A stretch of DNA of 64,000 bases from positions 32,606 through 96,605 of the forward strand of contig CAVVNJ010000002.1 of NCBI GenBank assembly GCA_963749595.1. Direction: 5' to 3'. This DNA is from Candidatus Woesebacteria bacterium. GTDB lineage: Bacteria; Patescibacteriota; Microgenomatia; UBA1400; UBA1396. The notes under the pieces are model-generated. The model searched no databases, was not told the DNA's origin, and saw only the letters and a list, made by a program, of their open reading frames with translations. The position numbers and the translations under genes are program-made. Below are positions 4,939 through 52,683 of this stretch, piece after piece (the stretch's first letter is position 1; every line of letters begins with the position of its first letter).

Positions 4939-4942
4939 CTCG

Positions 4943-14604: not shown

Positions 14605-14622
14605 GCAAATTAATTAAGTATC

Positions 14623-14650
14623 TTTACTGCCGCAAGTTTGCTGATATAAT
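14623..14650 (+). promoter_or_regulatory. Candidate sigma70-type promoter for the PfkB kinase/RNR genes
   Basis: TTTACT (14623-14628), 16-nt spacer, then extended -10 TGaTATAAT (TATAAT at 14645-14650). It lies about 40 nt upstream of the ATG at 14693. Confidence 0.4.
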
Positions 14651-14692
14651 TTTCGGTTGGCAGTCAGAAGCAAATAAAATCTCTGGATTTTT

Positions 14693-18369: not shown

Positions 18370-18459
18370 GATGCCTTTCTTCGTGGCCGAACGAGTTTGA
18401 CTCTGTTAGAGAAGGATTATATCACCTATAATTATCAAAAAGCCATAGACGGAGGCATT

Positions 18460-20778: not shown

Positions 20779-20868
20779 AAAGGTCCTTAGTTAGTTGAGA
20801 AGTGTATAGACATCTATACGGTCTGATGATACTATGGAGAACCGCTACTTGCAAGAAGAAATGCTGTT

Positions 20869-22711: not shown

Positions 22712-22713
22712 GG

Positions 22714-23355: not shown

Positions 23356-23360
23356 TCAAA

Positions 23361-24272: not shown

Positions 24273-24299
24273 AAATTACTCTGGCAAATTATCGCCAGC

Positions 24300-24328
24300 A
24301 TAATGTCACAACTTATGGGCTTTGTCAA
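24300..24328 (-). promoter_or_regulatory. Candidate sigma70-type promoter for the 23361..24272 operon
   Basis: On the minus strand: perfect TTGACA (24323-24328), 17-nt spacer, CATTAT (24300-24305). A short hairpin, ctggcaaattatcgccag, lies in the predicted leader. Confidence 0.4.
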
Positions 24329-24350
24329 TACAATTTATACGAGAATAAAA

Positions 24351-28900: not shown

Positions 28901-29839
28901 ATGCGCCGCGCTCTCCTCACGCTCTTCCTGCTCTTTTTCTGGCTATCAGTGCTTACTCCGGCTAAAGCCCAAGTCCGAACCAACCGTCTGGGCCAAACTC
29001 CAACGGAAGAGCCAGCGCCCCTAGCCACCCAATCGGCTGAGACCGCCAGCCCGTCGGCAGAAATAGTGGCCAAAATAGAGCAAAAGGAAGAAAAGGATAT
29101 TACTCAGACCACCCCGCAGGTGAAAAGCCGATTAGCGCGTATTTTGGATGACAATCCCATCGGGCCGCTCAGCTGGAATAACTTTATCCAGCAGACAATC
29201 CGCCGGGCAGTTGATGGGGGAGTTCCGGCCAACATCCTAGTCCTGCTGCTACTTTTCCCGGTCATCGCCTCGTTTATCGCCGTCTCCCGTCACTTTATCG
29301 GCCTGGAGGGCTTCGGCGTCTACATCCCGGCCGTCCTGGCGGTCGCGTTACTTTCAACCGGTATCATTTCCGGCCTGTCGTTATTTATCGTTATTATCCT
29401 GGTCGCCACTCTCGGTAGAGATGTCGTCAAGCGCTTGCGTTTGCAATACCTGCCCCGCACCGCGATCGTTCTCTGGGCGGTATCTTTGGCGGTGTTCGGA
29501 GTGTTATTGATTTCACCTTTTTTGGTCCGCGTCGGAATTGATTTGATCACTCTGAGCATTTTCCCAATCCTGGTTTTGATTCTACTCTCGGAAAACTTCA
29601 TTGACGCCCAATTATCCAGCACCCAATCCCGAGCACTCCAACTGATGACCGAAACCATCGTTCTGGCGGTTGCATCAGCTCTATTCGTCCGTACCCAAAT
29701 AGTGCAGGATTTCGTGATTCTTCATCCGGAAATAGTCATTCTGGCCGTACTCTTCATCGATTTGGCGGTGGGCAAATACACCGGCTTGCGCGTCACCGAA
29801 TATTTGCGTTTTAAAAGCATTATTGACCGGGAGGAATGA
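28901..29839 (+). CDS. Multi-pass (about 7-TM) membrane protein, first gene of the ATP-grasp/QEGLA triad
   Basis: 312 aa with a signal-like N-terminus (LFLLFFWLSVLTPAKA) followed by a long run of hydrophobic segments. The stop overlaps the next start. It resembles the 7TM module that accompanies RimK-related ligases, but has no transglutaminase-like domain. Confidence 0.6.
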   Translation: MRRALLTLFLLFFWLSVLTPAKAQVRTNRLGQTPTEEPAPLATQSAETASPSAEIVAKIEQKEEKDITQTTPQVKSRLARILDDNPIGPLSWNNFIQQTIRRAVDGGVPANILVLLLLFPVIASFIAVSRHFIGLEGFGVYIPAVLAVALLSTGIISGLSLFIVIILVATLGRDVVKRLRLQYLPRTAIVLWAVSLAVFGVLLISPFLVRVGIDLITLSIFPILVLILLSENFIDAQLSSTQSRALQLMTETIVLAVASALFVRTQIVQDFVILHPEIVILAVLFIDLAVGKYTGLRVTEYLRFKSIIDREE

Positions 29840-31122
29840 CCGTGGTCAACCCACGTCACCTGTTGGGAATGAATGCCAGAGTTCAGCTTTACACGGCCCT
29901 GAATCCGATGGCGGCCAAAAAATATGGCTTTTCCAAATTACGCGCCAAATCATTTTTAAAAAAACACGGGGTTCTGGTACCCGAATTGTACGGCCAAATC
30001 GGTTCACCGGAGGATCTGCGTCAATTTTCCTGGCATAGCATTCCCGGCGGATTTGCCGTCAAGCCGGCTAGCGGCAGCGCGGGCAAAGGCATTGTAGTAA
30101 TTAAGCGGAAGAAACCGCGACAACTGGTTTGGATTGACGTTGCCGGCCGCGACTGGACGGAAGACGATCTCAATCTGCACGTCAGCGACATCCTGGCTGG
30201 CCAGTACAGCACTTGGGGCTCGCGCCACATGGCGCTAATTGAGGAGAGGATCCCAATCCACCCGGATTTGGAATCATACGCCCAACTAGGTACGCCGGAC
30301 ATACGCGTCATTGTCTTTCACAACATCCCGGTGATGGCGATGGCCCGTATTCCCACCGAAACTTCCGGGGGTCGGGCCAACCTGGATCAAGGGGCGATCG
30401 GCTTGGGGCTAGATATGGGAACCGGCAAATCAATCTACGGTGTTTCCGGCAAAAAGAAAGTGATTACTCATTTTCCCCACAACAACCTCTCCGTTCGCGG
30501 CATTCAGATTCCTTTCTGGACCGATGTCTTAAAAACTGCCGTCCGGGTTGCCAACTCAACCGGCTTGATTTTCATGGGTTGTGACATTTTTCTGCACCCG
30601 GAAAAGGGTCCCATGGTCGCGGAAGTTAATGCTTACCCAGGTCTATCGATCCAGCTGGCCAACCGTGCCGGCTTGCGGCGGCGCCTGGAAAGACTGGAGG
30701 GTGTGGAAGCCCGTAATGTCGCTCACGCCGTTAAGATCGCCCAATCCTTATTCGCGGAAAGTTATCCAGGCGCCGCCGGAGAGCTAGATCGGCCGATCAT
30801 CGCGCCCAAGGAAAAAATTAAAGTCTATGACCTTGAGGAAGAGTCACATGAGGTTCTGGCTTTAGTTAATACCGCCCGCGGCCGAAGCGTCATCGCCGAA
30901 AATCTGGCTCAGCAACTCGGGTTGGATAAACAAACCACGGTGCTATCGGAAGAGCTGGAAGAGGGGGATGGAAAGTCGCTGGTGGTTCCGGTGCGAATCA
31001 AAATTAGCGACCGCATTCTAAACACGTCTATGGCCATTTCTAAGCGCTTAAACAACAAGCGGCACCGGGTGGAATTGGGGCGCAAAGAATTATCCGGATT
31101 TCTGGTTGGGGAAGAACTATGA
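29836..31122 (+). CDS. RimK-related ATP-grasp ligase (alpha-L-glutamate-ligase-like)
   Basis: 428 aa with FAVKPASGSAGKGIVVI, IEERIPIHPDL, PDIRVIVFHNIPVMAMARIPT..GGRANLDQGAIGLGLD and VAEVNAYPGLSIQ. Confidence 0.8.
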   Translation: MTVVNPRHLLGMNARVQLYTALNPMAAKKYGFSKLRAKSFLKKHGVLVPELYGQIGSPEDLRQFSWHSIPGGFAVKPASGSAGKGIVVIKRKKPRQLVWIDVAGRDWTEDDLNLHVSDILAGQYSTWGSRHMALIEERIPIHPDLESYAQLGTPDIRVIVFHNIPVMAMARIPTETSGGRANLDQGAIGLGLDMGTGKSIYGVSGKKKVITHFPHNNLSVRGIQIPFWTDVLKTAVRVANSTGLIFMGCDIFLHPEKGPMVAEVNAYPGLSIQLANRAGLRRRLERLEGVEARNVAHAVKIAQSLFAESYPGAAGELDRPIIAPKEKIKVYDLEEESHEVLALVNTARGRSVIAENLAQQLGLDKQTTVLSEELEEGDGKSLVVPVRIKISDRILNTSMAISKRLNNKRHRVELGRKELSGFLVGEEL

Positions 31123-32147
31123 AACAACCACAAAAAAAACTGACTTTACTCCAAAAGATTAATCCGATAAACAAGGACCAAGAAAAACGTAAATTCTTTT
31201 TCGATCCGCTTTATAATCCGCAGTTTGAATACTTGGAGGACGTCAGCCTGGAAGATTGGATGAAGTACGGCCCAGCCGCTACTGAGTTCTTACCAGCGGC
31301 TCAACATATTTTAGATTCAGTACTCAAACAGTGGGGTACCGAATCCCAATATTTGGCGGACACCGAAGGCGAGGTTTTAACCCAAGAAGCGGCGCAAGCA
31401 GAGATTAACGATTATTTAAAAAAAAACAGTTTAGAAAAGGAAATCGTCCTGGTATTTTCGCCCAAGCAGACCGCTCGCACTTTAATGCGGAAAAACGTGC
31501 TCAGCATTCGTACTCCGATTCAATATCGCCAGCGCGCAATTATTGGCATGCTCAACCACGAGCTGGGAACCCATTACTTCCGGGGAATAAACGAAAAACA
31601 ACAGCCCTGGCATGGCCAACACCAGGCCTTTGGTCTTGGCGCTGGGGAGTCAGAGGATGGCTTCTGGTCAGGCTCCTATTTGGAAACGGAAGAGGGCCTG
31701 GCGGTAATCAACTCTAATGCCTCCTTGCCGGATAAACACTTGTGGTTTCCCGCCTTATCTTATCTTTCGGTTAACCTGGCGAAAGAGCTTTCATTCTCCG
31801 AACTTTTTCATGAACTAAAACGCTACACTGATGATCGCGACCGTCGTTGGAGTTTAAGTTTGAAAGCCAAGCGCGGGCTGAGGGACACCTCTCTCCCAGG
31901 CGCTTTCACGAAAAACCAGCTCTATTTTTCCGGCGCCATTAAGACTTTACACTGGCTAAAAGAAAATAATTTTGCGGCCGAGAAACTTTACCTTGGAAAG
32001 ATTTCCCTGGATGACGTCGAGCAAGCCAAAGAAATAGCCCAGTTTTCTTCCATCCGCTTGCCGAGCTTTCTAAACGATCGGGAGAAATATCGCGATGCGG
32101 TGAAAAAAATCATCGCTCTTAATAAACTTGAGTCCTGGTTAAAATAA
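31119..32147 (+). CDS. DUF1704/QEGLA-motif family metallopeptidase-like protein (MATCAP-type carboxypeptidase fold)
   Basis: 342 aa. NHELGTHY is an HEXXXH motif, followed by YLETEEGLAV (the family QEGLA motif with Q->E). The start overlaps the ligase stop. Confidence 0.7.
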   Translation: MKQPQKKLTLLQKINPINKDQEKRKFFFDPLYNPQFEYLEDVSLEDWMKYGPAATEFLPAAQHILDSVLKQWGTESQYLADTEGEVLTQEAAQAEINDYLKKNSLEKEIVLVFSPKQTARTLMRKNVLSIRTPIQYRQRAIIGMLNHELGTHYFRGINEKQQPWHGQHQAFGLGAGESEDGFWSGSYLETEEGLAVINSNASLPDKHLWFPALSYLSVNLAKELSFSELFHELKRYTDDRDRRWSLSLKAKRGLRDTSLPGAFTKNQLYFSGAIKTLHWLKENNFAAEKLYLGKISLDDVEQAKEIAQFSSIRLPSFLNDREKYRDAVKKIIALNKLESWLK

Positions 32148-34606: not shown

Positions 34607-35158
34607 TTATTCGGTTTTCTTCTTACCCTTTAGCCGGGCGCTGACACTGAACTCGCGCTCCCCGCCACTGGCGGTCTCGATAACCTGCGAACCGGTCAGC
34701 TGGTAGTAACGGATCAAGTGGTTACTGACGGTCTGCTTGACCTCATTGGCCTCTTCCAGTAATTCTTTGATCTTGATCTGAAACTGGACGGCTTCCGGCG
34801 ATTCCTTAATCCGCTGTTTCTTGGCGGTTACCTCGGTCTTGACGGCTTTTTCTTTTTGCTCCGCCTCCTGCAACTCCTCGTTATTCTCAAACAAATTAGT
34901 CAATGATTCGCGCAAGTCGCGAATTTTTTTATTAAGCTCGTCGAGTTGGTCGCCGTAGCGTTCAACGATGTTCTGGATTGCGGTCAATTGCTCGCCAAAT
35001 TCCTCGGCTTGGACAGTTTGGGAAGCCAACTCATCAGCAGAGAGGGCTCCGATTTCACCCTCCGGCAAAACCTCGATTTCCGGCTCAGGTAAGGCCAGCT
35101 CGTCACCTTCGGGCAACGACTCGACGGCAGATTCGGCTAGAGCGGTTTCTTCAGGCAT
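34607..35158 (-). CDS. Acidic coiled-coil hypothetical protein
   Basis: ORF track lists 34607..35221. I trimmed it to the ATG at 35158, which follows the RBS AGGAGAA. N-terminal E/P/L-rich repeats (LPEGDELALPEPEIEVLPEGEIGAL) precede a coiled coil. Confidence 0.5.
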   Translation of the reverse strand: MPEETALAESAVESLPEGDELALPEPEIEVLPEGEIGALSADELASQTVQAEEFGEQLTAIQNIVERYGDQLDELNKKIRDLRESLTNLFENNEELQEAEQKEKAVKTEVTAKKQRIKESPEAVQFQIKIKELLEEANEVKQTVSNHLIRYYQLTGSQVIETASGGEREFSVSARLKGKKKTE

Positions 35159-35271
35159 GGGTTCTCCTCTTGGGTTCCTCGAAAAGCCACTGTAGCAGGC
35201 GGGGTAGAAAATTACAACCAACTGCCTCTAGGCGAAATTATCGGTCGAAAGTACAATCCAAAAAAACCTAT

Positions 35272-36105
35272 ATGAAAAACGAAATACAAGTCTCGTTAGT
35301 CAATATTATTAATCACAAAAAGGGAATCGATACCCGCATTCTTGATCATAGCGGCAAAAGAGAACTAATCCAGATCAGCCGCCGCCTGGCTGAGCATGCC
35401 CACAATCAAGGCATCAGGCGTGTGGCGTTCATTGACCGCAGCGCGCGTTTGGGCTACATCGGCTTTAGGAAGGAATGGCACAATCTCTATCCGCAGGAAA
35501 AACTGCCGTCCATCATCTTTTTTAATCCGCGCAGCTTCGTCTATCAAGATTTTTTGAATCAAAAATTTAAACTTTCCGATGAATTAACCCTCACCAGAGC
35601 GATGATGATCGCCGGAAAGGAAATGAGCGAAATTCAACTACTGCTGTTCTCCTGGAGAGAACTAGTCAACGAGATTTTGCCACAAAAAGGTCGGGCTCTC
35701 ACCAAGAACGCCCCCGCTAATGTGGGCGGAATTGTTGAGCGGTTGCGACAAGATTTTCCCCGGCTATGTCAGGACAAAAAGAGTCCGCTCCTGCTTATTG
35801 ATACTTGCCGCCATACCGGCAATGCTTATATGCCGATCGCGGAAACCTTGAAATGCGCCGGATTCAAAGATGTTCGATTGGCTTTGGTCTCCCATACTCG
35901 CGATCTGTCCGGGCAGTCCAATCCCGACTTTGTGGCTCTACCTGGCGAGCCGACTTATGCCTGTTATCCCTTTAAGCAGGATTCAATGGTGGAAAAAACT
36001 ACCAATCACCTTTACTCCGCGCCAACAGCTTCCTCTATGGAGCGACGCTGCGGGCAAGAACTCCGGCGCTCCTTAAAAGCAATCTTTGCGATGGAAATTA
36101 GATAG
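35272..36105 (+). CDS. Phosphoribosyltransferase-like hypothetical protein
   Basis: ORF track lists 34978..36105, whose N-part is antisense to the previous gene. I trimmed it to the ATG at 35272 (MKNEIQVSL...). PLLLIDTCRHTGNA resembles a PRPP-binding loop. Confidence 0.5.
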   Translation: MKNEIQVSLVNIINHKKGIDTRILDHSGKRELIQISRRLAEHAHNQGIRRVAFIDRSARLGYIGFRKEWHNLYPQEKLPSIIFFNPRSFVYQDFLNQKFKLSDELTLTRAMMIAGKEMSEIQLLLFSWRELVNEILPQKGRALTKNAPANVGGIVERLRQDFPRLCQDKKSPLLLIDTCRHTGNAYMPIAETLKCAGFKDVRLALVSHTRDLSGQSNPDFVALPGEPTYACYPFKQDSMVEKTTNHLYSAPTASSMERRCGQELRRSLKAIFAMEIR

Positions 36106-36408: not shown

Positions 36409-37089
36409 TTAGCGGGTACTCGAGGCTGGTTTAGCCAGACGCTGGTACACCACCCCCAGATTGACTCCCACAAATGGGTAGCCATCGGTATAGATGGACA
36501 TTACGGCGGTCCGTTCGACCCGCCAGTGGAGATCAGCAGGCGGACGCTCAGTATCGAACGAACCGGAACAAATAAATCGACCGCCGGGCCGAACGTGCTT
36601 TGCCAGACAATCTAATAGGTCTTGTTCGCGTAGTTGTCGTTCCATATTGGGCAAGCGGAACATTGTCACGGTGTCAAACTGCACCGAGACCGGCCATTTA
36701 TCCAACAAATATCCCGCCCCAACGTCATAATAATCAATGATCAGAGGATTTTGCTTTGGAACTTCCGGAATTGGATCAACATCTCTACTCTCAGTTTCCA
36801 AACCAAAAATTATTGACTCTGGGTTAGAAAGAAACTCCGGTTCGGTGGTAACTAGCGATTTTACCTCTGGTCGCAATTTTTCGCGAAAACCTCCTTCCGG
36901 CAAAAAGAACAAGCATCGCTCTGGAAAGGCCTGACCATGGCCAATAACGAAGACATCACCGCTTACTTCCGACGGTTTGATAGCCATTGCTTCAATCGAT
37001 CCAAAGAATCCGCGAATCACGGAGGGGATAGATCGATCGTAATGGTCGATATCAAAAAAAACTTCCTCAGGCCGTCGGGATCGTGACAT
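36409..37089 (-). CDS. Class I SAM-dependent methyltransferase-like protein with unknown N-terminal domain
   Basis: 226 aa with YDVGAGYLL (motif I-like), FDTVTMFRL (motif II-like) and LAKHVRPGGRFI (motif III-like). Confidence 0.5.
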   Translation of the reverse strand: MSRSRRPEEVFFDIDHYDRSIPSVIRGFFGSIEAMAIKPSEVSGDVFVIGHGQAFPERCLFFLPEGGFREKLRPEVKSLVTTEPEFLSNPESIIFGLETESRDVDPIPEVPKQNPLIIDYYDVGAGYLLDKWPVSVQFDTVTMFRLPNMERQLREQDLLDCLAKHVRPGGRFICSGSFDTERPPADLHWRVERTAVMSIYTDGYPFVGVNLGVVYQRLAKPASSTR

Positions 37090-37123: not shown

Positions 37124-37522
37124 CTATTCGGCTACTTTCACACGCCGATAGACCACGCCCAGATTGTGTCCGTAGAAAGGATAATCGGCATCGATTGTCG
37201 ACATCTCGGCAAACCGCTCAACCTGCCAATGCTTATTCTTCACCGGCTGATCGCTCGAATGAGAACCGGAGCAAATAAACCGACCACCGACCATGGACTT
37301 CACCTCCGGCCGAAATTTCTCGGTAAAAAAATCATCAGGCAACAAAAGCGAGCCGCGCTCGGGAAACAACTGCGCCTGGCCGATAACAAAAACTTTGCCG
37401 ATAATTTCACTAGGCTTCAATTGGAGTCGTCGCAGCGAAATTAAGAAGTTACGAATCATCGTTGGTGCTTCATCGCTCGAAAAGGTATCGTGTTCCTTTT
37501 CCATTGGTCGGGTGGGTGACAT
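37124..37522 (-). pseudogene. Internally deleted paralog of the 36409..37089 gene (lacks the methyltransferase core)
   Basis: 132 aa. It matches the neighbour at KVFVIGQAQLFPER/DVFVIGHGQAFPER, FREKLRPEVKSLV/FTEKFRPEVKSMV and GGRFICSGS...HW(R/Q)VER...GVVY(Q/R)R. It jumps directly from EVKSMV to GGRFICSGS. Confidence 0.45.
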
Positions 37523-37545: not shown

Positions 37546-37616
37546 TCCCGGGTAGTGAAATGGCATCACAACTGGCTCTGAACCAGTTATTCGAGGTTCG
37601 AATCCTTGCCCGGGAA
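37546..37616 (+). tRNA. tRNA-Gln(CTG)
   Basis: TCCCGGGTAGTGAAATGGCATCACAACTGGCTCTGAACCAGTTATTCGAGGTTCGAATCCTTGCCCGGGAA. The U1-A72 pair is typical of tRNA-Gln. Anticodon loop CTCTGAA. Confidence 0.85.
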
Positions 37617-37691
37617 CCTTTGAGATTACACTCAAAAAAACATTTGCGTAGTTTTTACATAAAAAGTCATGATTACTATACAATCAAATTT

Positions 37692-37919
37692 ATGAAGAAA
37701 ATTAGCTTGTTATTAGTCGTAATTATTTGTTTGATCGCAATTTTCCAAGGTATTTTTAAAATCTACAAAGTTGACGTAGCTAATACGTGCCAGTGGAAAA
37801 ACGGAAAAATTGTCTTATCAACAGTGATGATAGCTAAGGTTAAGTATGTACTTGTTCGTAGATCCAATGAAACAGAGTTTATAAAAAGATCCGAAAAAAA
37901 TGGTGTCTGCATTTATTAG
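37692..37919 (+). CDS. Small membrane-anchored/secreted hypothetical protein (75 aa)
   Basis: I trimmed ORF 37293..37919 to the ATG at 37692 (MKKISLLLVVIICLIAIFQG...). The local sequence is AT-rich. Confidence 0.4.
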   Translation: MKKISLLLVVIICLIAIFQGIFKIYKVDVANTCQWKNGKIVLSTVMIAKVKYVLVRRSNETEFIKRSEKNGVCIY

Positions 37920-37955
37920 CAGCGCAGTAGTCTTTTTCGCTATAATTAACCCGGA

Positions 37956-39137
37956 ATGATCTCTGGTTTTATTACCAAAATATATCTCTATCGATTCTTC
38001 GCGGATTTAATCTTTATTTATCCGGTTTATTCGGTAATGTTTGTCGATCATGGTCTCAGTCCGATCCAGATATCAATCTTGTTGATGACTTGGGCGGGAA
38101 CCTCATTTATTCTGGAAGTACCCTCCGGTGTCTTGGCTGATAAGTATTCCCGGAAAAATATTTTGGCACTGGCCCAAATAATCAGAATTGCGGGTTATCT
38201 ATTTTGGATCTTGCGACCGGATTTTTTTGGTTTCTTGATCGGCTTTATCTTGTGGGGCGTCCAAAGTGCCTTTACCTCTGGTACTTTGGAAAGTTTTGTT
38301 TTCGACGAACTTAAAGCCCAGCAACTCGAATCCCGGTACACTAAAGTATGGGGGCAACTAGAAAGTTTGGGATATCTGGCGCTCTTGTTCTCCGGTGTAG
38401 GAGCAGCTTTAGCAGTGAATTTTGGTTATAGTTTTGTTTTGGTAATCAGCCTTATTTCCTTGGTTGTTTCGACTATTACTGTCTGTCTGATACCAAGCGT
38501 GAAAGCCGCTGCCTCAACCGAGGAAACAAAGTACTTCGCCTTGTTACGCCGGGGCCTGAAGGCCAGTTTTAAAAATATTCCGGTCTTAAAGATCATCGTC
38601 TTTGTCTCTCTGGTTCAAGCCCTGTTCGGCGCCCTGGATGAGTACTGGCCGATTTTTGCTAATGAGGCGGGGTTAGCTCGGTCTGGTTTAGGTGTCTTTT
38701 TTGCCCTGTATGGTTCAGTCCAAATTCTGGCCAGCCTGATCGCCTACCGCTTGGAAAAACTATCCTCCACCTTCTTTGAGTTTTTGTTTGTCATCAATGG
38801 ATTATTGCTTCTCGCCGCTTCATATTTCTATCGAGTATCGTCTTTGGTGCTGCTCTTGTTGTTCAGTTTCCTTTTCAAATTAATCGACGTTGTTCTGCAG
38901 AGCCGGCTCCAACATCAGGTGACAGAAGTCAGCGTCCGGGCCACCATCACGTCGGTCAAAGGCTTTTTTGTCGAGTTAACCGTCATGGCACTCTATCTGA
39001 TCATGGGTCTGATGGCGAAGTCTATGGGTTACCAAAGTGCCTTCGGAGGGGTCGGGATTATTATCAGCGTCATCGGCATGATATATTTGGGCCTCGAACT
39101 TATAAAGGCAATCAAGACGAAAGAAAGGCAAAAATGA
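37956..39137 (+). CDS. MFS transporter
   Basis: 393 aa with about 12 hydrophobic segments and an MFS loop-like motif, GVLADKYSRKN. Confidence 0.8.
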   Translation: MISGFITKIYLYRFFADLIFIYPVYSVMFVDHGLSPIQISILLMTWAGTSFILEVPSGVLADKYSRKNILALAQIIRIAGYLFWILRPDFFGFLIGFILWGVQSAFTSGTLESFVFDELKAQQLESRYTKVWGQLESLGYLALLFSGVGAALAVNFGYSFVLVISLISLVVSTITVCLIPSVKAAASTEETKYFALLRRGLKASFKNIPVLKIIVFVSLVQALFGALDEYWPIFANEAGLARSGLGVFFALYGSVQILASLIAYRLEKLSSTFFEFLFVINGLLLLAASYFYRVSSLVLLLLFSFLFKLIDVVLQSRLQHQVTEVSVRATITSVKGFFVELTVMALYLIMGLMAKSMGYQSAFGGVGIIISVIGMIYLGLELIKAIKTKERQK

Positions 39138-39589
39138 CTCCTCTCGAACAAGGATCAGGTTATCCCGGGTATCAGGATCTGATCTCTCAGCTGCAATTGG
39201 CGATCAAAATTCAGATCGACTCGTTTCGTCAGGATATAGAACAACGCCTTGGCAATCGGCCACTAAAAGCCGCGGCGGAGAAGCTTCGCCTTCGAGTTGA
39301 TGCGAGAATGACGGAATCGCGGCTAAACGAAACCTGGACGGAAATGCTAGCCTACGATTTGGCGGCAATGGAAGAAGCCAGAAAGATTTTAAATTATCTT
39401 CGGGTCGGCCGAATCGCTGACGTGGACGGAACGGCGATTATTTACTCCCTAGGACAAATCTGCCAATCAGTTGGGGTTGACGTCAAGCGAACCTTTGACG
39501 ATCCTGATTTGGCAACCCAACTAGCCAGACGACAACTGGCGTCGGAAATCCAGACCTTGCTTGCGGACATGCTCGGATTTAATCGTTAA
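39134..39589 (+). CDS. Hypothetical protein
   Basis: 151 aa. The start overlaps the MFS gene stop (ATGA). No domain recognised. Confidence 0.5.
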   Translation: MTPLEQGSGYPGYQDLISQLQLAIKIQIDSFRQDIEQRLGNRPLKAAAEKLRLRVDARMTESRLNETWTEMLAYDLAAMEEARKILNYLRVGRIADVDGTAIIYSLGQICQSVGVDVKRTFDDPDLATQLARRQLASEIQTLLADMLGFNR

Positions 39590-39591
39590 AG

Positions 39592-40052
39592 TTACTCAAC
39601 TTTTTCGATTTGATATTCCACGGCTCCGGAAGGAGTTTCTACTCTGATTTGATCGCCGACTTTTTTACCTAGGACCGCCGCGCCGATCGGACTGGCCAGC
39701 GGATAATTTTTGTTTCACCGGATCTGATTCATGTTCGCTGACCAGCATGAACTTCAGTTCGCCCCGCGGACCGGCCAAAGTTAAGGTGGCCCCGAAATCG
39801 ATGGTGTTACCGGTTGGTCTTTCTCGTATTTCTCCCTCGCGCAGTAAATAATTGAGCTGCCGCAAGCTCCCGCCCAATGTTGCCCAGCTCGAACTTGGCA
39901 TAGCGGTAAGCACCGTTTTCGGAAAGGTCGCCCATTTCGCGCGCCGCCTTGAGGCGCACCAAGGTTTCCTCGCGCAAGTCGTGAAGTTGTTTACGCCGCT
40001 CGATCATTTTCTGAAAGGCGGCGCGCGTGAACGGAATTTTCGGTTCGGGCAT
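39592..40052 (-). pseudogene. greA: Transcription elongation factor GreA, split over three frames (two frameshifts)
   Basis: Frame 1: MPEPKIPFTRAAFQKMIERRKQLHDLREETLVRLKAAREMGDLSENGAYRYAKFELGNIGRE. Frame 2: LRQLNYLLREGEIRERPTGNTIDFGATLTLAGPRGELKFMLVSEHESDPVKQKL. Frame 3: YPLASPIGAAVLGKKVGDQIRVETPSGAVEYQIEKVE*. The shifts lie near 39860-39875 and 39700-39715. Confidence 0.75.
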
Positions 40053-40116
40053 AATGTCCCGAGTATAGTCTTATACCGGGTGTATACACTAGGTCTGTTC
40101 AACAGAGGAGGAAGTC

Positions 40117-41055
40117 ATGAGTCGTATTCTCGTTACCGGCGCTTTCGGTCAAATCGGATCGGAATTAGTTCCGGCTTTGCAACAAAACACGGAATCGATA
40201 ACGTCATCGCCATCGGCCACCGTAACGTGCCGCCTGAGTTTAAGGGCATTCTGGAATCCGCGGATGCGATGGACTTTAATCGGCTGAAAGAATTGGTCGA
40301 GAAATATGACGTCGACACCATTTACCATCTGGTTTCACTGTTGTCCGCCACCGGTGAGAAAAATCCCGATTTGGCTTGGGAATTAAACTTGGTCGGCTTG
40401 AAGGGGATACTTGATTTAGCCAAGGAAAAGAAATTACGTCTATTCTGGCCGAGCTCGATCGCTGCCTTCGGCCCGACCACGCCGCGGCAGCAAACGCCCG
40501 CAACATACCGTCCTCGAACCAACCACGATGTATGGCGTGACCAAGGTCGCCGGCGAGTTATTGGTGCAGTACTACTACCAAAAATACGGCGTCGACGTGC
40601 GCAGCGTGCGCTATCCGGGCATTATCAGCTGGAAAGCCGAACCAGGCGGCGGTACGACCGATTACGCGGTGGCGATTTTCTACGACGGCATCAAATACGG
40701 ACGCTACACCTGCTTCGTTAAACCGGAAACGGTTTTGCCGATGATGTATATGGACGACGCGGTGAAAGCCACGATCCAGCTCATGGACGCCGATCCGGAA
40801 AAATTGACTGTCCGGACCAGTTATAACCTGGCGGCAATCAGTTTTTCGGTGGAAGAATTGGCGAATGAGATCCGCAAACATCTTCCCTTGGAAGTCGCAT
40901 ATGAACCGGACCAGCGCCAGAAAATTGCCGATTCCTGGCCGCAATCGATCGATGACAGCCAGGCTCGACAAGACTGGAACTGGAAACACGAATTCGACTT
41001 GTCGAAAATGACGGAAGTGATGCTGGAAAACTTGGGAAAGAAATTAAAAGCTTAA
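40117..41055 (+). pseudogene. tdh: L-threonine 3-dehydrogenase (SDR/epimerase-type), split over three frames (two frameshifts)
   Basis: RBS GAGGAGG then MSRILVTGAFGQIGSELVPALQQ. After a shift: KHGIDNVIAIGHRNVPPEF...FWPSSIAAFGPTTPRQQTP. After a second shift: QHTVLEPTTMYGVTKVAGELLVQYYYQKYGVDVRSVRYPGIIS... to the stop at 41055. The shifts lie near 40181-40190 and 40495-40503. Confidence 0.75.
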
Positions 41056-41116
41056 AAATCGTAAGGGGATTTTCCTCTAAATGAGGATAATCCCCGCTAC
41101 AATGTAGAAAGGCCAT

Positions 41117-42360
41117 ATGTCCAAACAAGCATTTTTACAGGTACTGCAAAAGGAACTTGAGCGCGTCGACTCGGTCCACGTCAGCAAGCGGCGAGAGCGG
41201 GTGATCAGCGGCTTCACCAAAGACGCTTCGCCCAAAGCGATTATCGACGGAAAAGAATACCGGATCTTCAACTCCAACGACTACCTGGGTCTGCGCCATG
41301 ATCCCGATCTACTGGCGGCCGAACACGCCGCGGGAGAAAAGTTTGGCACCGGCCCAGGCGCGGTGCGGTTTATTTCCGGCACGATGTCGGTTCACCAAGA
41401 ACTGGAGGCCGCCACGGCTAAGTTCCACGGACGGAAAGCAGCAATGGTCTTTTCCTCGGCGTTTGCCACAAACCTGGCGGTATTGCACGCCCTGATTAAG
41501 GGCCAGAGCGCCGATTCGATGGTTAGCGCCAAGACTCTGGTTTTGTCCGATGCCTTGAATCATCGCAGTATCATCGACGGTATCCGCGTCGCCAATCTGG
41601 ACAAAGAGGCGCGGCCAATCTTCGAACACCTTAATCCAGCTGACGCGGGACGAGTGCTGAAGGAAAACGTCGGCAAATTCGATCGCGCCCTGGTGATAAC
41701 CGATGGCGTGTTTCAGCATGCTGGGTGAGTACCAGGACCTAAAGGCCCTGCGGGAAGTAATCGACCAGTACGATGACCAGTATCCGGAGGGCGTCTGGTT
41801 GGTGGTGGACGATGCCCATGGCGTGGGCGCGTTCGGTCCGACCGGCCGTGGCACGGAAGAAATGAGCGGCGCCCAAGCCGACGTTTTAATCGGCACCTAT
41901 GGCAAGGCTTTCGGCGCGGACGGCGGTTACGTCACGGCAGACGAGACGGTGATCGCTTATTTGCGCGAATCCGCCGCCACCTATATCTACTCGAATTCGA
42001 TCTCGCCCGGGAACGGCCGGGGCAGCCAAGAAAGCGCTGGAAATGATGGGTTCGCCGGAAGGGCAACAAAAGCTACATCAACTGGAAAAGAATGTTGCCC
42101 GAATGAAAGAGGGGCTAAAACAAGCCGGGTTCGCCATGGCGGCGGATTCGCGCCACCCCATCCAACCGCTGTTGATCGGCGATCCGGAAAAGACGCAAAA
42201 ATTGGTCGAGTATTTCTTCCAGAACGGCATCCTGGCCACGGCGATTAGTTACCCGGTCGTGCCGCGCGGACGGGACGAAATCCGCATCCAGCTTAGCGCT
42301 GCGCATCAAGATGAAGATGTTGAAGCATTTCTGAAGGTCTTAAGCAGTTTTGTTGGCTAG
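41117..42360 (+). pseudogene. kbl: 2-amino-3-ketobutyrate CoA ligase (glycine C-acetyltransferase), split over three frames (two frameshifts)
   Basis: Frame 1: NSNDYLGLRHDP...ALNHRSIIDGIR...LVITDGVF. Frame 2: SMLGEYQDL...VVDDAHGVGAFGPTGRGT...GTYGKAFG (PLP lysine)...YIYSNSISPG. Frame 3: AGAAKKALEMMGSPEG...ISYPVVPRGRDEIRIQLSAAH. The shifts lie near 41708-41718 and 42006-42022. Confidence 0.75.
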
Positions 42361-43050
42361 CCGACTTAGAAATTGTGAAAGAAGCAACACTTCATTCAGG
42401 ACGCTCTCCGGGCTATCGCTACCATGGAGAACGGTATTGTGTACGTCTTTGGCATACCTGGCGCGGAGAGCATCGGGAGCAATTTCTCTTAATTTCACCA
42501 CATCCCAGTGTTGGCCCATTTGTTCACGCCAATTTTCCACGGCCCAACCTTCGGCAGAGTAGAGCAATAAGAAAGTTGACGGGCCGCGCAACATCAAGCT
42601 CACAAATTCGTCCCACCTGGTTTCGTGGTGAAGTCCATAGCGATTGGCTTCCATCGGCGGCAGATTTTTTTGTCGGGTGGCGCCACCACCATACCACTGT
42701 GCCACCATTTCGGGAGTAAAAATTAGCGAAAGCGAAAAAACGATTTGTAGGGGCGATTTAATATCAACTTTGATTCTCTCAAATAGCTCGGCGTCACCAA
42801 GTAAAGATTCGGTTTGGGGAAAGGCTTGATCCAATTCCGGCCGAATCATGGCTAGCGTCAATTTATTGGCTTGAATTAAAACTTTAATCTCTTCCGATTC
42901 TAGCATCCGCCTAATCGCTTCAATGGAGGCCGGAGAAAAACTAGTTTCCGCCAATAAACCTTGGGCATAAAACTGCCACATCTTTTCCCGACTAAATTCT
43001 TCCGGAATAGGAGTCGCTTTTAGCTGATCAACAATTCGCTTATTCATCAA
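42340..43050 (-). CDS. ndk: Nucleoside diphosphate kinase-like protein with N-terminal extension (divergent)
   Basis: 236 aa with LTLAMIRPE (compare ERTLAMIKPD), MLRGPSTFLLLYS (compare SGPVVAMV) and DALRARYAKDVHNTVLHGSDSPESVLNEV (compare TIRGDF..N.VHGSDS.ESA..EI). Confidence 0.6.
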   Translation of the reverse strand: MMNKRIVDQLKATPIPEEFSREKMWQFYAQGLLAETSFSPASIEAIRRMLESEEIKVLIQANKLTLAMIRPELDQAFPQTESLLGDAELFERIKVDIKSPLQIVFSLSLIFTPEMVAQWYGGGATRQKNLPPMEANRYGLHHETRWDEFVSLMLRGPSTFLLLYSAEGWAVENWREQMGQHWDVVKLREIAPDALRARYAKDVHNTVLHGSDSPESVLNEVLLLSQFLSRLANKTA

Positions 43051-43760
43051 GGTGAATTATACTTGACTACGGTCGCAAACCGGCCCTCTGGTTCTCCAGT
43101 GCGAATCGACCGGTAATGGGAAAAATATCGGTCGGATAATTTGACCGTGTCTTCTCCCAAAAAAGTCATGTTCTCTAGGGTTAAACCCTCGCGCTCAAGC
43201 TGATTTGCCGCATAACCAACCAGGTCGATCGACACCCCCATTTTTACCGGACGAAGAAATGGTTGCCAACTTGGATCGGTTTCATGCTCGATCGGGGAGG
43301 GGAGAATATAAGATTCGGCCGAAATCGACGGGCCAAAAATCGCCTTAAGGTCAGCGGTTTTTTTACCGAATCGATCGACTAGAATCCGCAGCACCTTCCT
43401 TGGCAATCCCAGCGCCGCCGTTTTCCGGCTGACGTGAATCAGAGCGAGAATCGATTCTTCCTGATCAAATAATATTATCGGCAGACAGTCGGCCGTCAGT
43501 AAAAATAATCCCAAGCCTTTTTCCTGAGTAATCAGGGCATCAGCCAACAAGGCTGTCTCTAGATCCAACATCCCTTGTCCCGCGTTGGTCCGATCGACAA
43601 TCGCTACTTCGTCCCGATGCTGCCCTAAAACCGTCACACAGTTTTCTAATTTCAAGTCATGTTTACTAAGCCACCGGTGGCGGTTAGCCAAGACTGCTTC
43701 CGGATCGTCATAACGAAAGGACATATTCCCGTCGGCTTTAGTCGAAACGCCATAAACCAT
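43047..43760 (-). CDS. YfiH/PgeF (DUF152, laccase-domain) family protein
   Basis: 237 aa with STKADGNMS, ADALIT, LLTADCLPIILFD and LIHVSRKTAALG (a variant of HAGWRG). Confidence 0.65.
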   Translation of the reverse strand: MVYGVSTKADGNMSFRYDDPEAVLANRHRWLSKHDLKLENCVTVLGQHRDEVAIVDRTNAGQGMLDLETALLADALITQEKGLGLFLLTADCLPIILFDQEESILALIHVSRKTAALGLPRKVLRILVDRFGKKTADLKAIFGPSISAESYILPSPIEHETDPSWQPFLRPVKMGVSIDLVGYAANQLEREGLTLENMTFLGEDTVKLSDRYFSHYRSIRTGEPEGRFATVVKYNSP

Positions 43761-49066: not shown

Positions 49067-49534
49067 TCAAACCCCTGGAGTTCGCGCGGCAACTGATTGG
49101 AGAATTCTCAGGGCTTCCGCATAGTTCTCACGGTGAAACCAAAGTTCAGCTTGCGCCAGTTGCTGGGAGGCAAAAGCTTCTTGCGCATAACGCTGTTTCA
49201 AATCGTTAAGAAATTCTTCCAGTACCTCATGCTTCATCTGGGCGGTCTTGTCGAGCAGGATTTGATCAAGGTCGGCAACTTTCTCATGCAACCAAGCCAA
49301 CAAATCAGTTTGTCTCGCTATCATAGGCTTTAATTCGTCAGTCAGCATTTGTTTGGCTTGACTCAAGTCTTCCGGAGAAAGTCGAGTAACCAAGTCAGTG
49401 TCGACTAAATCCTGAATTAACAAATTTTGGGCTTCTTCCAAAATTTGGTTCTTCTCGACCTCATCGGTACCGGCATAGCCAAGTAGCTGAAAAATGTCCA
49501 TGGATTGGAGAGCATCACGGGCGGCTGGGGTCAT
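49067..49534 (-). CDS. Hypothetical protein (155 aa, helical)
   Basis: Uninterrupted ORF starting 1 nt after the stop of the upstream gene. No domain recognised. Confidence 0.55.
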   Translation of the reverse strand: MTPAARDALQSMDIFQLLGYAGTDEVEKNQILEEAQNLLIQDLVDTDLVTRLSPEDLSQAKQMLTDELKPMIARQTDLLAWLHEKVADLDQILLDKTAQMKHEVLEEFLNDLKQRYAQEAFASQQLAQAELWFHRENYAEALRILQSVAARTPGV

Positions 49535-49535
49535 A

Positions 49536-50102
49536 TTATTTTCCTCTTTCCTTCATCCAAGCCGTCAGCCTTCTGCCCAGACTTGACGATGCTGGTTCGG
49601 GTTTCGAGAGCTGTTCATCAGCATCAGCATCAGCCTGAGGAACTTCTCCACTCAAGACCATCGGGGCAGCTGCATCAATGGTTGGCATCGGCGATTGTCC
49701 ATACTGGGTCGTATCCCAAAATGGTCGATTTTGAGCCCGCGCCACTATCGGGCTATTTTCCGCGGTGTAAAGAATCGGCTCAGTACTGGGCACGAATGGA
49801 GCAGCCGGGGATTCAGCTTGTGGTGATTGTTGCCAAGGATTTATTGCTGGTTCCGGCGCTACCAAACCAAGTCCAGGTGGAGCGGTCAACGCTCGAGGGG
49901 AATCGGCCGGGGACGATATGGGCTCACCAGTATTCAATCCGGCCTGTTGGCTCAGCAATTGACTCCGCTTTTCCTGTAAAGAATTATTCTCATCCCTTAA
50001 TTTTGCCAACTGAACATTTATCTCCCGTTGCTTCCGGTCATTGTCGGCAAGTTGTGCCTCAATAACTTTCATCTCGTCATTTGGTTGGTCAGTTTCGCCC
50101 AT
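49536..50102 (-). CDS. Hypothetical protein (188 aa; N-terminal coiled coil, P/A/S-rich C-terminal half)
   Basis: Uninterrupted ORF, first gene of a two-gene unit. Confidence 0.55.
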   Translation of the reverse strand: MGETDQPNDEMKVIEAQLADNDRKQREINVQLAKLRDENNSLQEKRSQLLSQQAGLNTGEPISSPADSPRALTAPPGLGLVAPEPAINPWQQSPQAESPAAPFVPSTEPILYTAENSPIVARAQNRPFWDTTQYGQSPMPTIDAAAPMVLSGEVPQADADADEQLSKPEPASSSLGRRLTAWMKERGK

Positions 50103-50201: not shown

Positions 50202-52031
50202 ATGATCACCGCAACCGAATTGCGCCACCAGTTTCTCGATTTTTTCCGGGAAAAAGATCATGCCGTTATCCCTTCCGCTTCTCTGGTCCCCGATAACGAT
50301 CCAACCACACTTTTTATCACCGCCGGCATGCATCCCCTGGTACCCTATCTTTTGGGTCAACCCCACCCGGAAGGAAAGCGTCTGGTTGACGTCCAAAAAT
50401 GCGTCCGTACGGTCGATATCGAAGAAGTTGGAGATGTCACCCACTTCACCTTTTTCGAAATGTTGGGTAACTGGTCGCTCGGCGATTATTTCAAACGCGA
50501 GGCGATCGAATGGAGCTGGGAGTTTTTGACTTCCCCAAAATGGCTAGGCCTTAATCCGGAAAAATTATTCGTTTCCGTTTTTGCCGGCGACGCCGATGCC
50601 CCGCGCGATGATGAAGCAGCCGAAATCTGGAAATCAGTGCTAGCTAAAAGCGGCGTCAGCCAACCTGAAAAACGGATTTATTTCTACCCCAAATCCGAAA
50701 ACTGGTGGGGACCGGCCGGTCAAACCGGTCCCTGCGGGCCTGACACGGAAATTTTTTACTATACCGGTGAGGCGGACCCATTCGCGCCCGGATTCAATGA
50801 CGAGCCTTCGGCCGGCCAGAGCGCTTTTATCGAAATCTGGAATAACGTTTTCATGCAATACAATAAAAATGCCGATGGTAGTTTTGTGCCCCTGAAGCAA
50901 CATAATGTTGATACCGGACTCGGCCTGGAGAGAATGACTGCCATCTTGAACTGGTTGCAGGGGAATATTGCCGATCCCGATCCTTACACCACCGATTTGT
51001 TCCGCCCGATCATTGCCGAACTGGAAAAAATTTCGGGGCAGAGTTATGCGGATCTGGTTGCCCGGCGCTCAATGCGCATTGTGGCCGATCACTTGCGTTC
51101 GGTCATCTTTGTTATCCAGGACGGGGTCGTCCCAACCAACAAAGAACGCGGTTACGTGCTGCGCCGCTTGATCCGCCGCGCGGTCCGGGAATTATTCAAG
51201 TTGGGCGTACCGACCGAGAACTATCGAACGACGGTCGAGTCCTTGGTCGGTTTGTTCATTGCCAACTCGGAATACGATGAGGCATATCCGGAATTGGCCG
51301 TCAATCGCGAATCGATTACGGCCCTGATCTCGACCGAAGTGGAAAAATTCACTAAGACGCTCCGCAAGGGTCTGCACGAAATCGAAAAGTATCCGCAACT
51401 TGATGGCGAAATTGCTTTCCAGCTTTATCAGTCCTACGGTTTTCCGCTGGAAATGACTCAGGAAATTGCGATGGAACGGGGACAGACCGTTGACGCCGAC
51501 GGGTTCCGTTCAGAATTTATCAAACACCAGGAGTTATCCCGCCAATTATCCGCCGGCACGTTCAAGGGCGGACTGGCTGACCACTCGGAAGCCGCGACGC
51601 GTTTTCACACGGCCACCCATCTACTGCATGCGGCACTGCGCCGAGTATTGGGAGAATCGGTTCATCAGGAAGGCTCCAACATCACCTCTGACCGTCTGCG
51701 CTTTGATTTTTCTTACGACCGTCCGCTAGCCGATCAGGAAATCGAGCAAGTTGAAAATTGGATTAATCAGCAAATTAAACTCGACTTGGTAGTCACGAAG
51801 CAAACCATGCCCAAAGACAAAGCCCTCGCTTCTGGCGCGCTCGCCTTTTTCAAGGAAAAATACCCGGATACCGTTTCGGTTTACACCATCGGCGGAGAAG
51901 AGAACTGGATCAGCCGGGAATTGTGCGGCGGGCCCCATGTGAATCATACCGGTGAAATCGGACCAATTGAGATTTTCAAACAAAAACCGGTGAGTGCGGG
52001 CGTTCGCCGCCTTTATTTGCGATTTTCTTAA
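50202..52031 (+). CDS. alaS: Alanyl-tRNA synthetase, short form (catalytic + editing domains, no C-Ala domain)
   Basis: 609 aa. N-terminus MITATELRHQFLDFFREKDHAVIPSASLVP. FFEMLGNWSLGDYFK. Editing-site motifs HTATHLLHAAL and CGGPHV lie near the C-terminus. Confidence 0.93.
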   Translation: MITATELRHQFLDFFREKDHAVIPSASLVPDNDPTTLFITAGMHPLVPYLLGQPHPEGKRLVDVQKCVRTVDIEEVGDVTHFTFFEMLGNWSLGDYFKREAIEWSWEFLTSPKWLGLNPEKLFVSVFAGDADAPRDDEAAEIWKSVLAKSGVSQPEKRIYFYPKSENWWGPAGQTGPCGPDTEIFYYTGEADPFAPGFNDEPSAGQSAFIEIWNNVFMQYNKNADGSFVPLKQHNVDTGLGLERMTAILNWLQGNIADPDPYTTDLFRPIIAELEKISGQSYADLVARRSMRIVADHLRSVIFVIQDGVVPTNKERGYVLRRLIRRAVRELFKLGVPTENYRTTVESLVGLFIANSEYDEAYPELAVNRESITALISTEVEKFTKTLRKGLHEIEKYPQLDGEIAFQLYQSYGFPLEMTQEIAMERGQTVDADGFRSEFIKHQELSRQLSAGTFKGGLADHSEAATRFHTATHLLHAALRRVLGESVHQEGSNITSDRLRFDFSYDRPLADQEIEQVENWINQQIKLDLVVTKQTMPKDKALASGALAFFKEKYPDTVSVYTIGGEENWISRELCGGPHVNHTGEIGPIEIFKQKPVSAGVRRLYLRFS

Positions 52032-52032
52032 T

Positions 52033-52683
52033 ATGGAACAATCCTGGTTCAAACAATTTAAGATCGAAAGCCTAACACAACTTCATTCGCTTAAACCCTC
52101 GGAAGTGAAAATATTTCGAGATGAACCGGTTCCTGAGAATTTCACGATTGTCGTTCGCCCGGAAGATAAAATACTAACCGCAATCGAAAAAGAGATGTCT
52201 GCCTTAAAGAAAATCGAGCCGAATCAATTTTATTATCCCTTAAGCGATTTACATCTTACGCTTGTGGGTAATATTCCCACCACTATCGACCAGCAAAAAA
52301 TTACCATTGCCCTCGAGAGCATAATCAAGCATTATCAGCTGGAATTCAAACTCGAAGGTCTGGGTAGTAATAAGTATTGCTCCTCATTTTCTGCTTATCC
52401 GATCGATTTTTCGCTCCATAAGTTGAGAGAAGAACTGCGTTCCAGAATCGGTATTCATGGCGATAATTACCAAAACATTCTTCCCAGTTATGAATATGTC
52501 GGTTGGATCAACTACCTGCGTTACCTCCAAATCCCAGGGCAGAAATTTCTTAATCGACTTTATGAAAACAGGGGAGCGGTATTCGGACAATTTCGACCAA
52601 GCTCGGTCCAACTTTTTCGAAACACCAGTAAAGTGCTCGCCTCGCCTCAAGCTCAATTGATCACCGAAATCAGCTTAGTTTGA
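52033..52683 (+). CDS. Hypothetical protein (single HLTL motif; possible 2H-phosphoesterase-like, weak)
   Basis: I trimmed ORF 51994..52683 to the ATG at 52033. SDLHLTLVG resembles one H-x-T-x motif of 2H phosphoesterases. I could not find the second motif. Confidence 0.45.
   Translation: MEQSWFKQFKIESLTQLHSLKPSEVKIFRDEPVPENFTIVVRPEDKILTAIEKEMSALKKIEPNQFYYPLSDLHLTLVGNIPTTIDQQKITIALESIIKHYQLEFKLEGLGSNKYCSSFSAYPIDFSLHKLREELRSRIGIHGDNYQNILPSYEYVGWINYLRYLQIPGQKFLNRLYENRGAVFGQFRPSSVQLFRNTSKVLASPQAQLITEISLV

Follow-up and report, generated by a model that had tools for sequence, protein, structure and literature searches.

The question raised by this locus is whether three adjacent genes have lost their reading frames in the organism, or whether the damage belongs to the deposited sequence. 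In the window, i.e. the whole 64,000-nt stretch of DNA that was analysed, greA, tdh and kbl are each spread over three frame segments in the ORF reading, and two frame changes are needed to read each gene from end to end. A sequence-only reading had proposed two frameshifts in each of these genes. This is confirmed both by the ORF reading and by alignment to intact relatives, and its six coordinates agree with ours within a few bases.

By alignment to intact relatives, the lesions are insertions of a single nucleotide at five sites and a deletion of a single nucleotide at one, all located between 39700 and 42008, Table 1. For the placement, greA was aligned with MAFFT to the intact gene of L001, the closest relative contig, and tdh and kbl were compared with the intact genes of L001, L165 and L166. 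One of the sites named earlier has to be moved: the A5 run at 39707-39711, which was taken for a lesion site, is also found in the intact gene of L001, and the extra base follows about 7 nt further downstream in greA. With six 1-nt edits it is possible to restore the three ORFs to the lengths given in Table 1, with zero internal stops.

Table 1. Coordinates of the three genes, the six lesions and the neighbouring features in the window. Inserted bases are given in square brackets, and ^ marks the missing base.
Feature	Coordinates	Strand	Remarks
tRNA-Gln(ctg)	37546..37618	+	in L001 directly adjoins the greA stop
MFS transporter (393 aa) and 151-aa protein without known family	37956..39589	+	intact left flank; missing from L001
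greA, probable transcript-cleavage factor	39592..40052	-	152 aa repaired; three frames in the window
greA lesion 2, 3'-proximal	39694..39706	-	extra base ~39700, TTATCC[G]CTGGCC; MAFFT against L001
greA lesion 1	39860..39869	-	extra base ~39864/5, GAGCT[T]GCGG
Divergent greA/tdh intergenic region	40053..40116		AGGAGG ribosome-binding site, 6 nt upstream of the ATG of tdh; region conserved in the alignment with L001
tdh, SDR-type L-threonine 3-dehydrogenase	40117..41055	+	312 aa repaired
tdh lesion 1	40177..40192	+	base missing ~40187/8 after A4 run, CAACAAAA^CACGG
tdh lesion 2	40494..40506	+	extra base ~40500, ACGCCC[G]CAACAT
kbl, probable 2-amino-3-ketobutyrate CoA ligase (glycine C-acetyltransferase)	41117..42360	+	413 aa repaired
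kbl lesion 1	41705..41717	+	extra T at 41711-41713, GTGTT[T]CAGC; context GGCGTGTT[T]CAGC
kbl lesion 2	42001..42016	+	extra C/G ~42006-42011, TCGCC[C]GGGAAC; context TCTCGCC[C]GGGAACGG
NDK-like (236 aa) and PgeF/YfiH-like (237 aa) genes	42340..43760	-	intact right flank

The six lesions span 2,309 nt of the 64,000-nt window. By our own calculation, six uniformly placed points would fall within a range of at most 2.3 kb with a probability of ~4e-7. The clustering is thus far beyond chance, as had been suspected from the sequence, and no split gene was found among the ~50 other window ORFs scanned against Pfam. The lesions are located at short runs of 1-4 nt, not at long homopolymers; homopolymers of 6 nt or more occur 134 times in the window, and those of 8-9 nt that were checked sit in ORFs that read through. 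The lesions are carried by the deposited record, as fragments of 81, 56, 175 and 203 aa, all from one NCBI/ENA contig of 174,862 nt, are present in the protein collection. An exact look-up of these fragments returned no record in any assembly; as the source contig was likewise not returned, this negative is a weak one.

Some other ORF pairs in the window were considered as split genes and rejected. The alaS gene and the 229-aa ORF next to it (50202-52683) do not appear to be joined, since neither PDB nor Pfam gave a match for the 229-aa ORF, and the tRNA_SAD domain of alaS is followed directly by the end of the gene. The two members of the pair at 57644-59136 match two different families, and no Pfam match joins either the pair at 49067-50102 or that at 4213-5384.

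After repair, all three products can be compared with known families. GreA covers positions 2-151 of the 151 profile positions of TIGR01462 (E 3.5e-30), with a score of 105 bits against a curated cutoff of 139. Its homologs bear PF03449 and PF01272, a GDLSEN motif is readable in the repaired protein, and the identity to the intact GreA of L001 is 83%. Repaired Tdh, 90% identical to the Tdh of L001, aligns end to end with PDB 2yy7 (E 2.9e-116); the matches to 2yy7, 7epr, 5y1d and others have E-values from 1e-102 to 1e-116 and cover residues 3-307. The protein has the NAD-binding GxxGxxG (GAFGQIG) and the catalytic YxxxK (YGVTK), and by this full-length similarity and both motifs it is assigned as an SDR-type L-threonine 3-dehydrogenase.

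Repaired Kbl aligns end to end with PDB 3tqx, 1fc4, 7v58 and 7bxp (E ~1e-61 to 1e-64), matches NF005394 with an E-value of 7e-95, and has a readable GTYGKAFG motif. Among the NCBIfam models, the Kbl model gives 318 bits (cutoff 460) and the BioF model 323 bits (cutoff 426). As the two models score alike and below their cutoffs, the Kbl assignment rests on the PDB matches and on the operon context; the tdh-kbl adjacency was found again in 40 of the retrieved loci. The two genes would form an operon that converts threonine to glycine and acetyl-CoA, with greA divergently transcribed from it.

Relatives carry the same genes in the same context. In L001, intact kbl and tdh are transcribed divergently from an intact greA, followed by the tRNA-Gln and the same left-hand neighbours as in the window. 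In L165, the PgeF-like gene, the right-hand neighbour shared with the window, comes straight after kbl. The window has specific insertions on both sides of the block, namely the MFS transporter with the 151-aa gene on the left and the NDK-like gene on the right. In protein searches with GreA, Tdh and Kbl, L001 is the closest match at 82-91% identity, and the scans of genome and metagenome contigs with repaired Tdh gave loci of at most 75% identity among the matches listed, which did not include L001. Most matches are metagenome sequences, and the named best matches of all three proteins are of the CPR/Microgenomates type.

The base composition of the block is atypical. Its GC content is 0.539, against a mean of 0.493 (sd 0.023) in windows of the same size (z ~+2), the highest value in the window, so the impression that it is GC-richer than its neighbours was correct. 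The tetranucleotide distance lies in the top 1.6% of the window, and GC3 is 0.59 for greA, 0.64 for tdh and 0.67 for kbl, compared with 0.38-0.64 in the other genes. One of the two origins offered by the sequence-only reading, a recently acquired foreign GC-rich segment that is now decaying, could draw on these values: no other 2.8-kb stretch of the window is as rich in GC as the block, GC3 peaks in tdh and kbl, and window-specific insertions flank the block on either side. However, we regard such an origin as very unlikely. The genes of L001 and L165 stand in the same context, at the nucleotide level the block is 80% identical to L001 and the best-conserved segment of the flanks 79%, and the best homologs of the three proteins are, by best matches, from CPR/Microgenomates. 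In L166 (0.511 vs 0.468) and in L001, too, the GC content of tdh-kbl exceeds that of the DNA around it. Mobility genes are absent, and the lineage-specific DNA lies in the flanking insertions and not in the block. The atypical composition stands, but the foreign origin is contradicted by synteny, the homologs and a divergence like that of the flank speak against it, and no sign of decay was found beyond the six indels. The other origin offered, a low-quality or chimeric patch, is better supported.

The selective regime of the genes was estimated against L001. The dN/dS values are 0.094 for greA, 0.062 for tdh and 0.031 for kbl, and those of the flank genes are 0.05-0.07. Found in the window lineage alone are 7 amino-acid changes in tdh and 6 in kbl, compared with 11 and 9 in the intact L001 lineage. 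Judged by these values, the three genes show no relaxed selection. Only the frame is damaged: after repair the ORFs are complete and free of stops and match their families over the full length, and the intergenic region with its ribosome-binding site is conserved. A scan of the block for promoters and terminators gave nothing exceeding the shuffled expectation.

These observations bear on a second explanation, a genuine and very recent pseudogenisation of greA, tdh and kbl that is specific to the strain. The lesions do stand in the deposited sequence, and one intergenic control region is common to all three genes, which would explain joint damage to adjacent, functionally unrelated genes. A possible route is that this shared 64-nt divergent promoter region was silenced, so that the genes became neutral together and then collected slippage indels, with an indel-biased spectrum; each of the six lesions is compatible with a +/-1 change in the length of a short run, the kind of change that slippage would give. 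The patchy distribution of tdh-kbl in CPR also makes these genes plausibly dispensable. However, where decay is genuine, dN/dS is relaxed as well, stop codons appear, and the indels are larger and biased towards deletion; here stop codons, larger deletions and an excess of amino-acid changes are all absent. The intergenic region and the ribosome-binding site look intact and conserved. Indels in real bacterial pseudogenes are deletion-biased and variable in size, so six lesions that are all of 1 nt, five of them insertions, are unlike natural ones, and their occurrence without accompanying substitutions would be an improbable natural spectrum. There is also no second greA in the 64-kb window that could compensate for the loss; the other intact copy that the sequence-only reading had suggested looking for was not found there. 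Together with the independent assemblies below, this makes pseudogenisation unlikely.

Independent evidence comes from the Logan assemblies of two read sets, ERR12037366 and ERR15459711, which we compared with the window through ORF coordinates; the contigs concerned measure 2367 and 4437 nt in ERR12037366 and 2317 and 1915 nt in ERR15459711. The flank proteins of 393, 151 and 237 aa are identical to those of the window in both, and both assemblies appear to represent the same strain. The 3' frame of greA stops in the window at the TGA at 39715 after 40 codons, but is open for 105 codons in ERR12037366 and for 103 in ERR15459711. For kbl, the 3' frame is open for 135 codons in the window (TGA at 41950) and for 138 codons, to the contig end, in both Logan contigs, a margin of just 3 codons. 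As the Logan frames run past the in-frame stops of the window, the two outermost lesions (39700 and ~42008) appear to be absent there. The ORF coordinates thus indirectly counter two of the six lesions, the outermost sites of greA and kbl, and these assemblies with identical flank proteins argue against pseudogenisation. The runs may derive from other samples, in which case only other members of the population would be intact and the record would not necessarily be wrong. A literature search on ERR12037366 and ERR15459711 found nothing.

The short-read Logan contigs of both runs break off within the block at almost identical positions, ~39904-39911 on one side and exactly 41943 on the other. 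Contig ends that are shared by two runs indicate a reproducible branch of the assembly graph, which hints at co-occurring variants within the block. The left contig of ERR12037366 begins exactly at the shared tRNA-Gln (37545). We considered k-mers shared with an L001-like relative as the cause of the contig ends, and this is only partly borne out: the nearest 31-mer in common with L001 inside greA (39925-39956) lies 15-20 nt past the contig ends, and therefore a nearer co-occurring variant must be postulated.

Programmed recoding, in which ribosomal frameshifting or transcriptional slippage would keep the genes expressed, has in its favour the frameshifts themselves and nothing more. The six sites share no common motif and contain no slippery heptamer, and both directions are present, with five +1 and one -1. 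At every site the orthologs of L001, L165 and L166 keep the frame, and the Logan assemblies of what appears to be the same strain do so, by their ORF coordinates, at two of them. We consider this explanation extremely improbable.

It is therefore probable that the six indels form a local consensus or assembly error patch of ~2.3 kb (39700-42008). They would then be errors of the deposited consensus and not mutations of the organism, and greA, tdh and kbl would be ordinary, native and functional genes of a CPR/Microgenomates-type bacterium. According to our model, no stretch of the neighbourhood is as conserved or as GC-rich as the block, and in the source community the block would be common to, or polymorphic among, co-occurring relatives. 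A small number of reads, or reads that were mixed or mis-aligned, would then probably underlie the consensus of the patch. Small indels may be left in such a stretch by a long-read or gap-fill segment that was not polished, or by the collapse of haplotypes, while the rest of the contig is accurate. In collapsed assemblies, allelic variants that lie close by are known to lead to misaligned reads and to INDEL errors (PMC8445201), and frameshift errors in long-read MAGs worsen at low coverage (PMC8103633). Such assembly errors concentrate at low coverage or at co-occurring variants (PMC8103633, PMC8445201, PMC12007338).

The main value of the result lies in the quality control of the record. Taken at face value, the record would point to a CPR bacterium without GreA and without the route from threonine to glycine, and would add spuriously to the number of pseudogenes and to the evidence for 'genome decay'. 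The signs used here amount to a usable recipe by which a local error patch can be recognised from assembled sequence, with no need of reads: the indels are of 1 nt only, selection is not relaxed in comparison with an intact sister lineage, the gene order is kept, and ORF lengths in independent assemblies contradict the record. We think it improbable that the frameshifts are real and that one Microgenomates-type CPR strain has very recently lost greA and tdh-kbl, possibly after promoter silencing and by insertion-biased indels. If they were real, the locus would show gene loss at its very first step in a genome that is already reduced, with a near-universal transcription factor among the genes lost. 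The loss of greA would then be mildly interesting, but nothing in the analysis points there.

Compared with known systems, the repaired GreA resembles known GreA in its 152 aa and in its predicted N-terminal coiled-coil and C-terminal domains, and differs in a score under the curated cutoff and in the two frameshifts of the deposited gene. The window shares with the tdh-kbl threonine degradation operon two adjacent, co-oriented genes and end-to-end structure matches; here too the difference lies in two frameshifts per gene as deposited and in NCBIfam scores under the curated cutoffs. Clustered pseudogenes of reduced genomes, e.g. those of host-restricted bacteria, also consist of adjacent frameshifted genes, but the relaxed dN/dS, stops and larger deletions of genuine cases are missing here. 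Closer is the likeness to indel errors of metagenome and long-read assemblies, in which 1-nt indels split conserved and otherwise intact genes into adjacent shifted ORFs (PMC8103633, PMC8445201, PMC12007338). The window differs from these in that the errors form one ~2.3-kb patch in a clean contig, away from long homopolymers, which points to a local cause, e.g. an unpolished or mixed-haplotype stretch, and not to the general error rate of the platform.

The sequence-only reading held that greA, tdh and kbl, three adjacent genes in a GC-rich block of ~2.8 kb (39592-42360), each need two frame changes to be read end to end, and the ORF map, three-frame translations and alignment to intact relatives confirm this. 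The lesions were located by DNA alignment to the intact genes of L001, the closest relative contig found (JGI 3300037424), and for tdh and kbl also to L165 and L166, two Logan contigs of relatives. Exactly six single-base lesions lie in the block, within a span of 2,309 nt; five are insertions and the sixth is a deletion. The shift coordinates proposed earlier agree within a few bases, but the A5 run near 39707-39711 is not a lesion, as intact L001 greA has it too. After six single-base edits the ORFs encode 152 (greA), 312 (tdh) and 413 (kbl) residues with no internal stops.

Features of the window with their positions; greA, tdh and kbl are placed from the ORF map and translations.
Feature	Position	Strand	Remarks
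Nucleotide-salvage gene run	10149-24971
Operon-like trio	28901-32147	+
Gene with L001 ortholog	33577-34506
Gene with L001 ortholog	34607-35221
375-aa ORF	34978-36105	+
226-aa gene	36409-37089	-	L001 ortholog, 222 aa
132-aa ORF	37124-37522	-
tRNA-Gln(ctg)	37546-37618
~2-kb insertion	37619-39591
AT-rich leader of insertion	around 37600-38000		GC ~0.32
MFS transporter	37956-39137
151-aa protein	39134-39589
greA	40052 down to 39592	-	Extra bases at ~39864/5 and ~39700
tdh (SDR-type threonine dehydrogenase)	40117-41055		Missing base at ~40187/8, extra base at ~40500
kbl	41117-42360		Extra bases at 41711-13 and ~42006-11
NDK-like gene, 236 aa	42340-43050	-
PgeF/YfiH-like gene	43047-43760

The repaired Tdh aligns over its full length with solved structures of SDR-type L-threonine 3-dehydrogenase (2yy7, E 3e-116), and Kbl matches solved 2-amino-3-ketobutyrate CoA ligases (3tqx, 1fc4; E ~1e-64). 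The repaired GreA covers the full length of the TIGR01462 profile, and its homologs have the PF03449 and PF01272 domains. NCBIfam scores of the repaired proteins fall under the curated cutoffs, which we attribute to sequence divergence because their closest homologs with a name come from CPR bacteria. The motifs GAFGQIG, YGVTK, GTYGKAFG and GDLSEN are all retained. Broken fragments of 81, 56, 175 and 203 aa are present in a public protein collection on one NCBI/ENA contig (174,862 nt), so the frameshifts belong to the deposited record. A gene-position index returned the flank genes of the source contig and not the four fragments; the source annotation may flag the three genes as pseudogenes.

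The clustering of the lesions, earlier judged to be beyond chance, is real. Six uniformly placed points fall within 2.3 kb of 64 kb with a probability of about 4e-7 (our calculation), and no further split gene turned up among about 50 other ORFs of the window scanned against Pfam. One suspected split gene, alaS with a 229-aa ORF, proved to be two separate genes. Homopolymer runs of 6 nt or longer number 134 in the window, and twelve of these reach 8 nt or more; those of 8-9 nt that were checked lie within ORFs that read through. The lesions are located at runs of only 1-4 nt. Programmed recoding at these sites, the least probable of the readings, is effectively excluded.

The block is, as first noticed, GC-richer than its neighbours; at 0.539 (mean 0.493) it is the highest of all 2.8-kb windows, with GC3 highest in tdh and kbl. 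This could suggest a foreign island now decaying. However, in L166 too the tdh-kbl pair exceeds its surroundings in GC (0.511 vs 0.468), as it does slightly in L001, and the excess is therefore a property of tdh-kbl in the lineage. Gene order is conserved too: L001 has intact kbl and tdh divergent from greA, then tRNA-Gln and, further along, orthologs of three window genes, while L165 has tdh-kbl followed by the PgeF-like ortholog. At the nucleotide level the block is 80% identical to L001 and the best-conserved flank segment 79%. For each of the three repaired proteins, whose origin had been put forward as a check, the closest homologs that carry a name are Microgenomates/CPR. These results lead us to reject a foreign, decaying island, which is very improbable and effectively excluded.

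The lineage-specific parts are instead two flanking insertions. Between tRNA-Gln and the greA stop codon lies a ~2-kb segment with an AT-rich leader, an MFS transporter and a 151-aa protein without a family match. In L001 greA directly adjoins the tRNA, and the segment resembles a small insertion beside the tRNA gene. The Logan assemblies of two read sets, ERR12037366 and ERR15459711, contain it as well. On the other side, between kbl and the PgeF-like gene, the NDK-like gene is a second lineage-specific insertion; in L165 the PgeF-like gene comes straight after kbl. Its product matches NDK weakly and carries additional sequence on the N-terminal side of the NDK-like part.

Other loci in the window also stand out. 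The 226-aa gene has a shortened paralog beside it, the 132-aa ORF. This ORF aligns in one frame to residues 9-89 and 169-218 of the L001 ortholog, without the middle ~80 residues; it is a tandem copy that has lost an internal segment and may be a genuine gene remnant. The 375-aa ORF, with no Pfam match, shares ~240 nt with the 3' part of an opposite-strand 204-aa gene; the corresponding place in L001 is taken by an unrelated 122-aa gene, and 35.2-36.1 kb is only a candidate coding region. The dense salvage run includes two deoxynucleoside kinases, a nucleoside hydrolase, a PfkB kinase, ribonucleotide reductase, dCMP deaminase, purine nucleoside phosphorylase and GMP synthase. Such sets are typical of CPR bacteria dependent on scavenged nucleosides. 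The trio (a 7TM_transglut membrane protein, a sugar-transfer-associated ATP-grasp, ATPgrasp_ST, and a MATCAP-like (PF08014) carboxypeptidase-type protein) may be a peptide-ligase/peptidase module.

A genuine, very recent strain-specific inactivation of the three genes, possibly through silencing of their shared divergent promoter, is a coherent reading but an unlikely one. Neutral indels in bacterial pseudogenes are expected alongside many substitutions, some stop codons and larger, mostly deletional events; none of these was seen here. Against L001, dN/dS is 0.094 (greA), 0.062 (tdh) and 0.031 (kbl), compared with 0.05-0.07 in flank genes. The window lineage has no excess of unique amino-acid changes: with L165 as outgroup, window vs L001, 7 vs 11 (tdh) and 6 vs 9 (kbl), and with L166, 8 vs 9 and 5 vs 10. 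Conservation also extends to the ribosome-binding site and the divergent intergenic region. Only the reading frame is damaged.

Inactivation is also opposed by the Logan assemblies of the two read sets, which encode identical 393-aa MFS, 151-aa and 237-aa flank proteins in exact-product look-ups. This comparison rests on ORF extents of contigs and bears on the two outermost lesions. On the left-flank contigs the minus-strand ORF that starts from the greA stop codon meets no stop over 105 and 103 codons, until the contigs end, whereas in the window a TGA at 39715 closes this frame after 40. On the right, the kbl 3' ORF has 138 open codons in both runs, again as far as the contig reaches, against 135 in the window, where a TGA at 41950 ends it. 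Judged by these ORF extents, the two read sets appear to lack the lesions at ~39700 and ~42008. Their contigs end nearly alike in both runs (left ~39904-39911, right exactly 41943), and one left contig begins exactly at tRNA-Gln. This looks like reproducible graph branching from co-occurring related sequences, not random coverage loss.

The most economical explanation, and probably the right one, is that the consensus is wrong over a local patch while the rest of the contig is accurate. The low-quality or chimeric assembly patch of the sequence-only reading is supported by damage confined to frame, clustering, and the apparent lack of the two outer lesions in other read sets. Such a patch might arise where a conserved stretch is common to, or polymorphic among, co-occurring relatives, and its cause could be an unpolished long-read or gap-fill segment, or collapsed haplotypes. 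The finding is an ordinary one, a probable artefact in three well-known genes. Collapsed assemblies are known to carry INDEL errors and wrong read alignments from nearby allelic variants (PMC8445201), and in long-read MAGs frameshift errors are worse at low coverage (PMC8103633).
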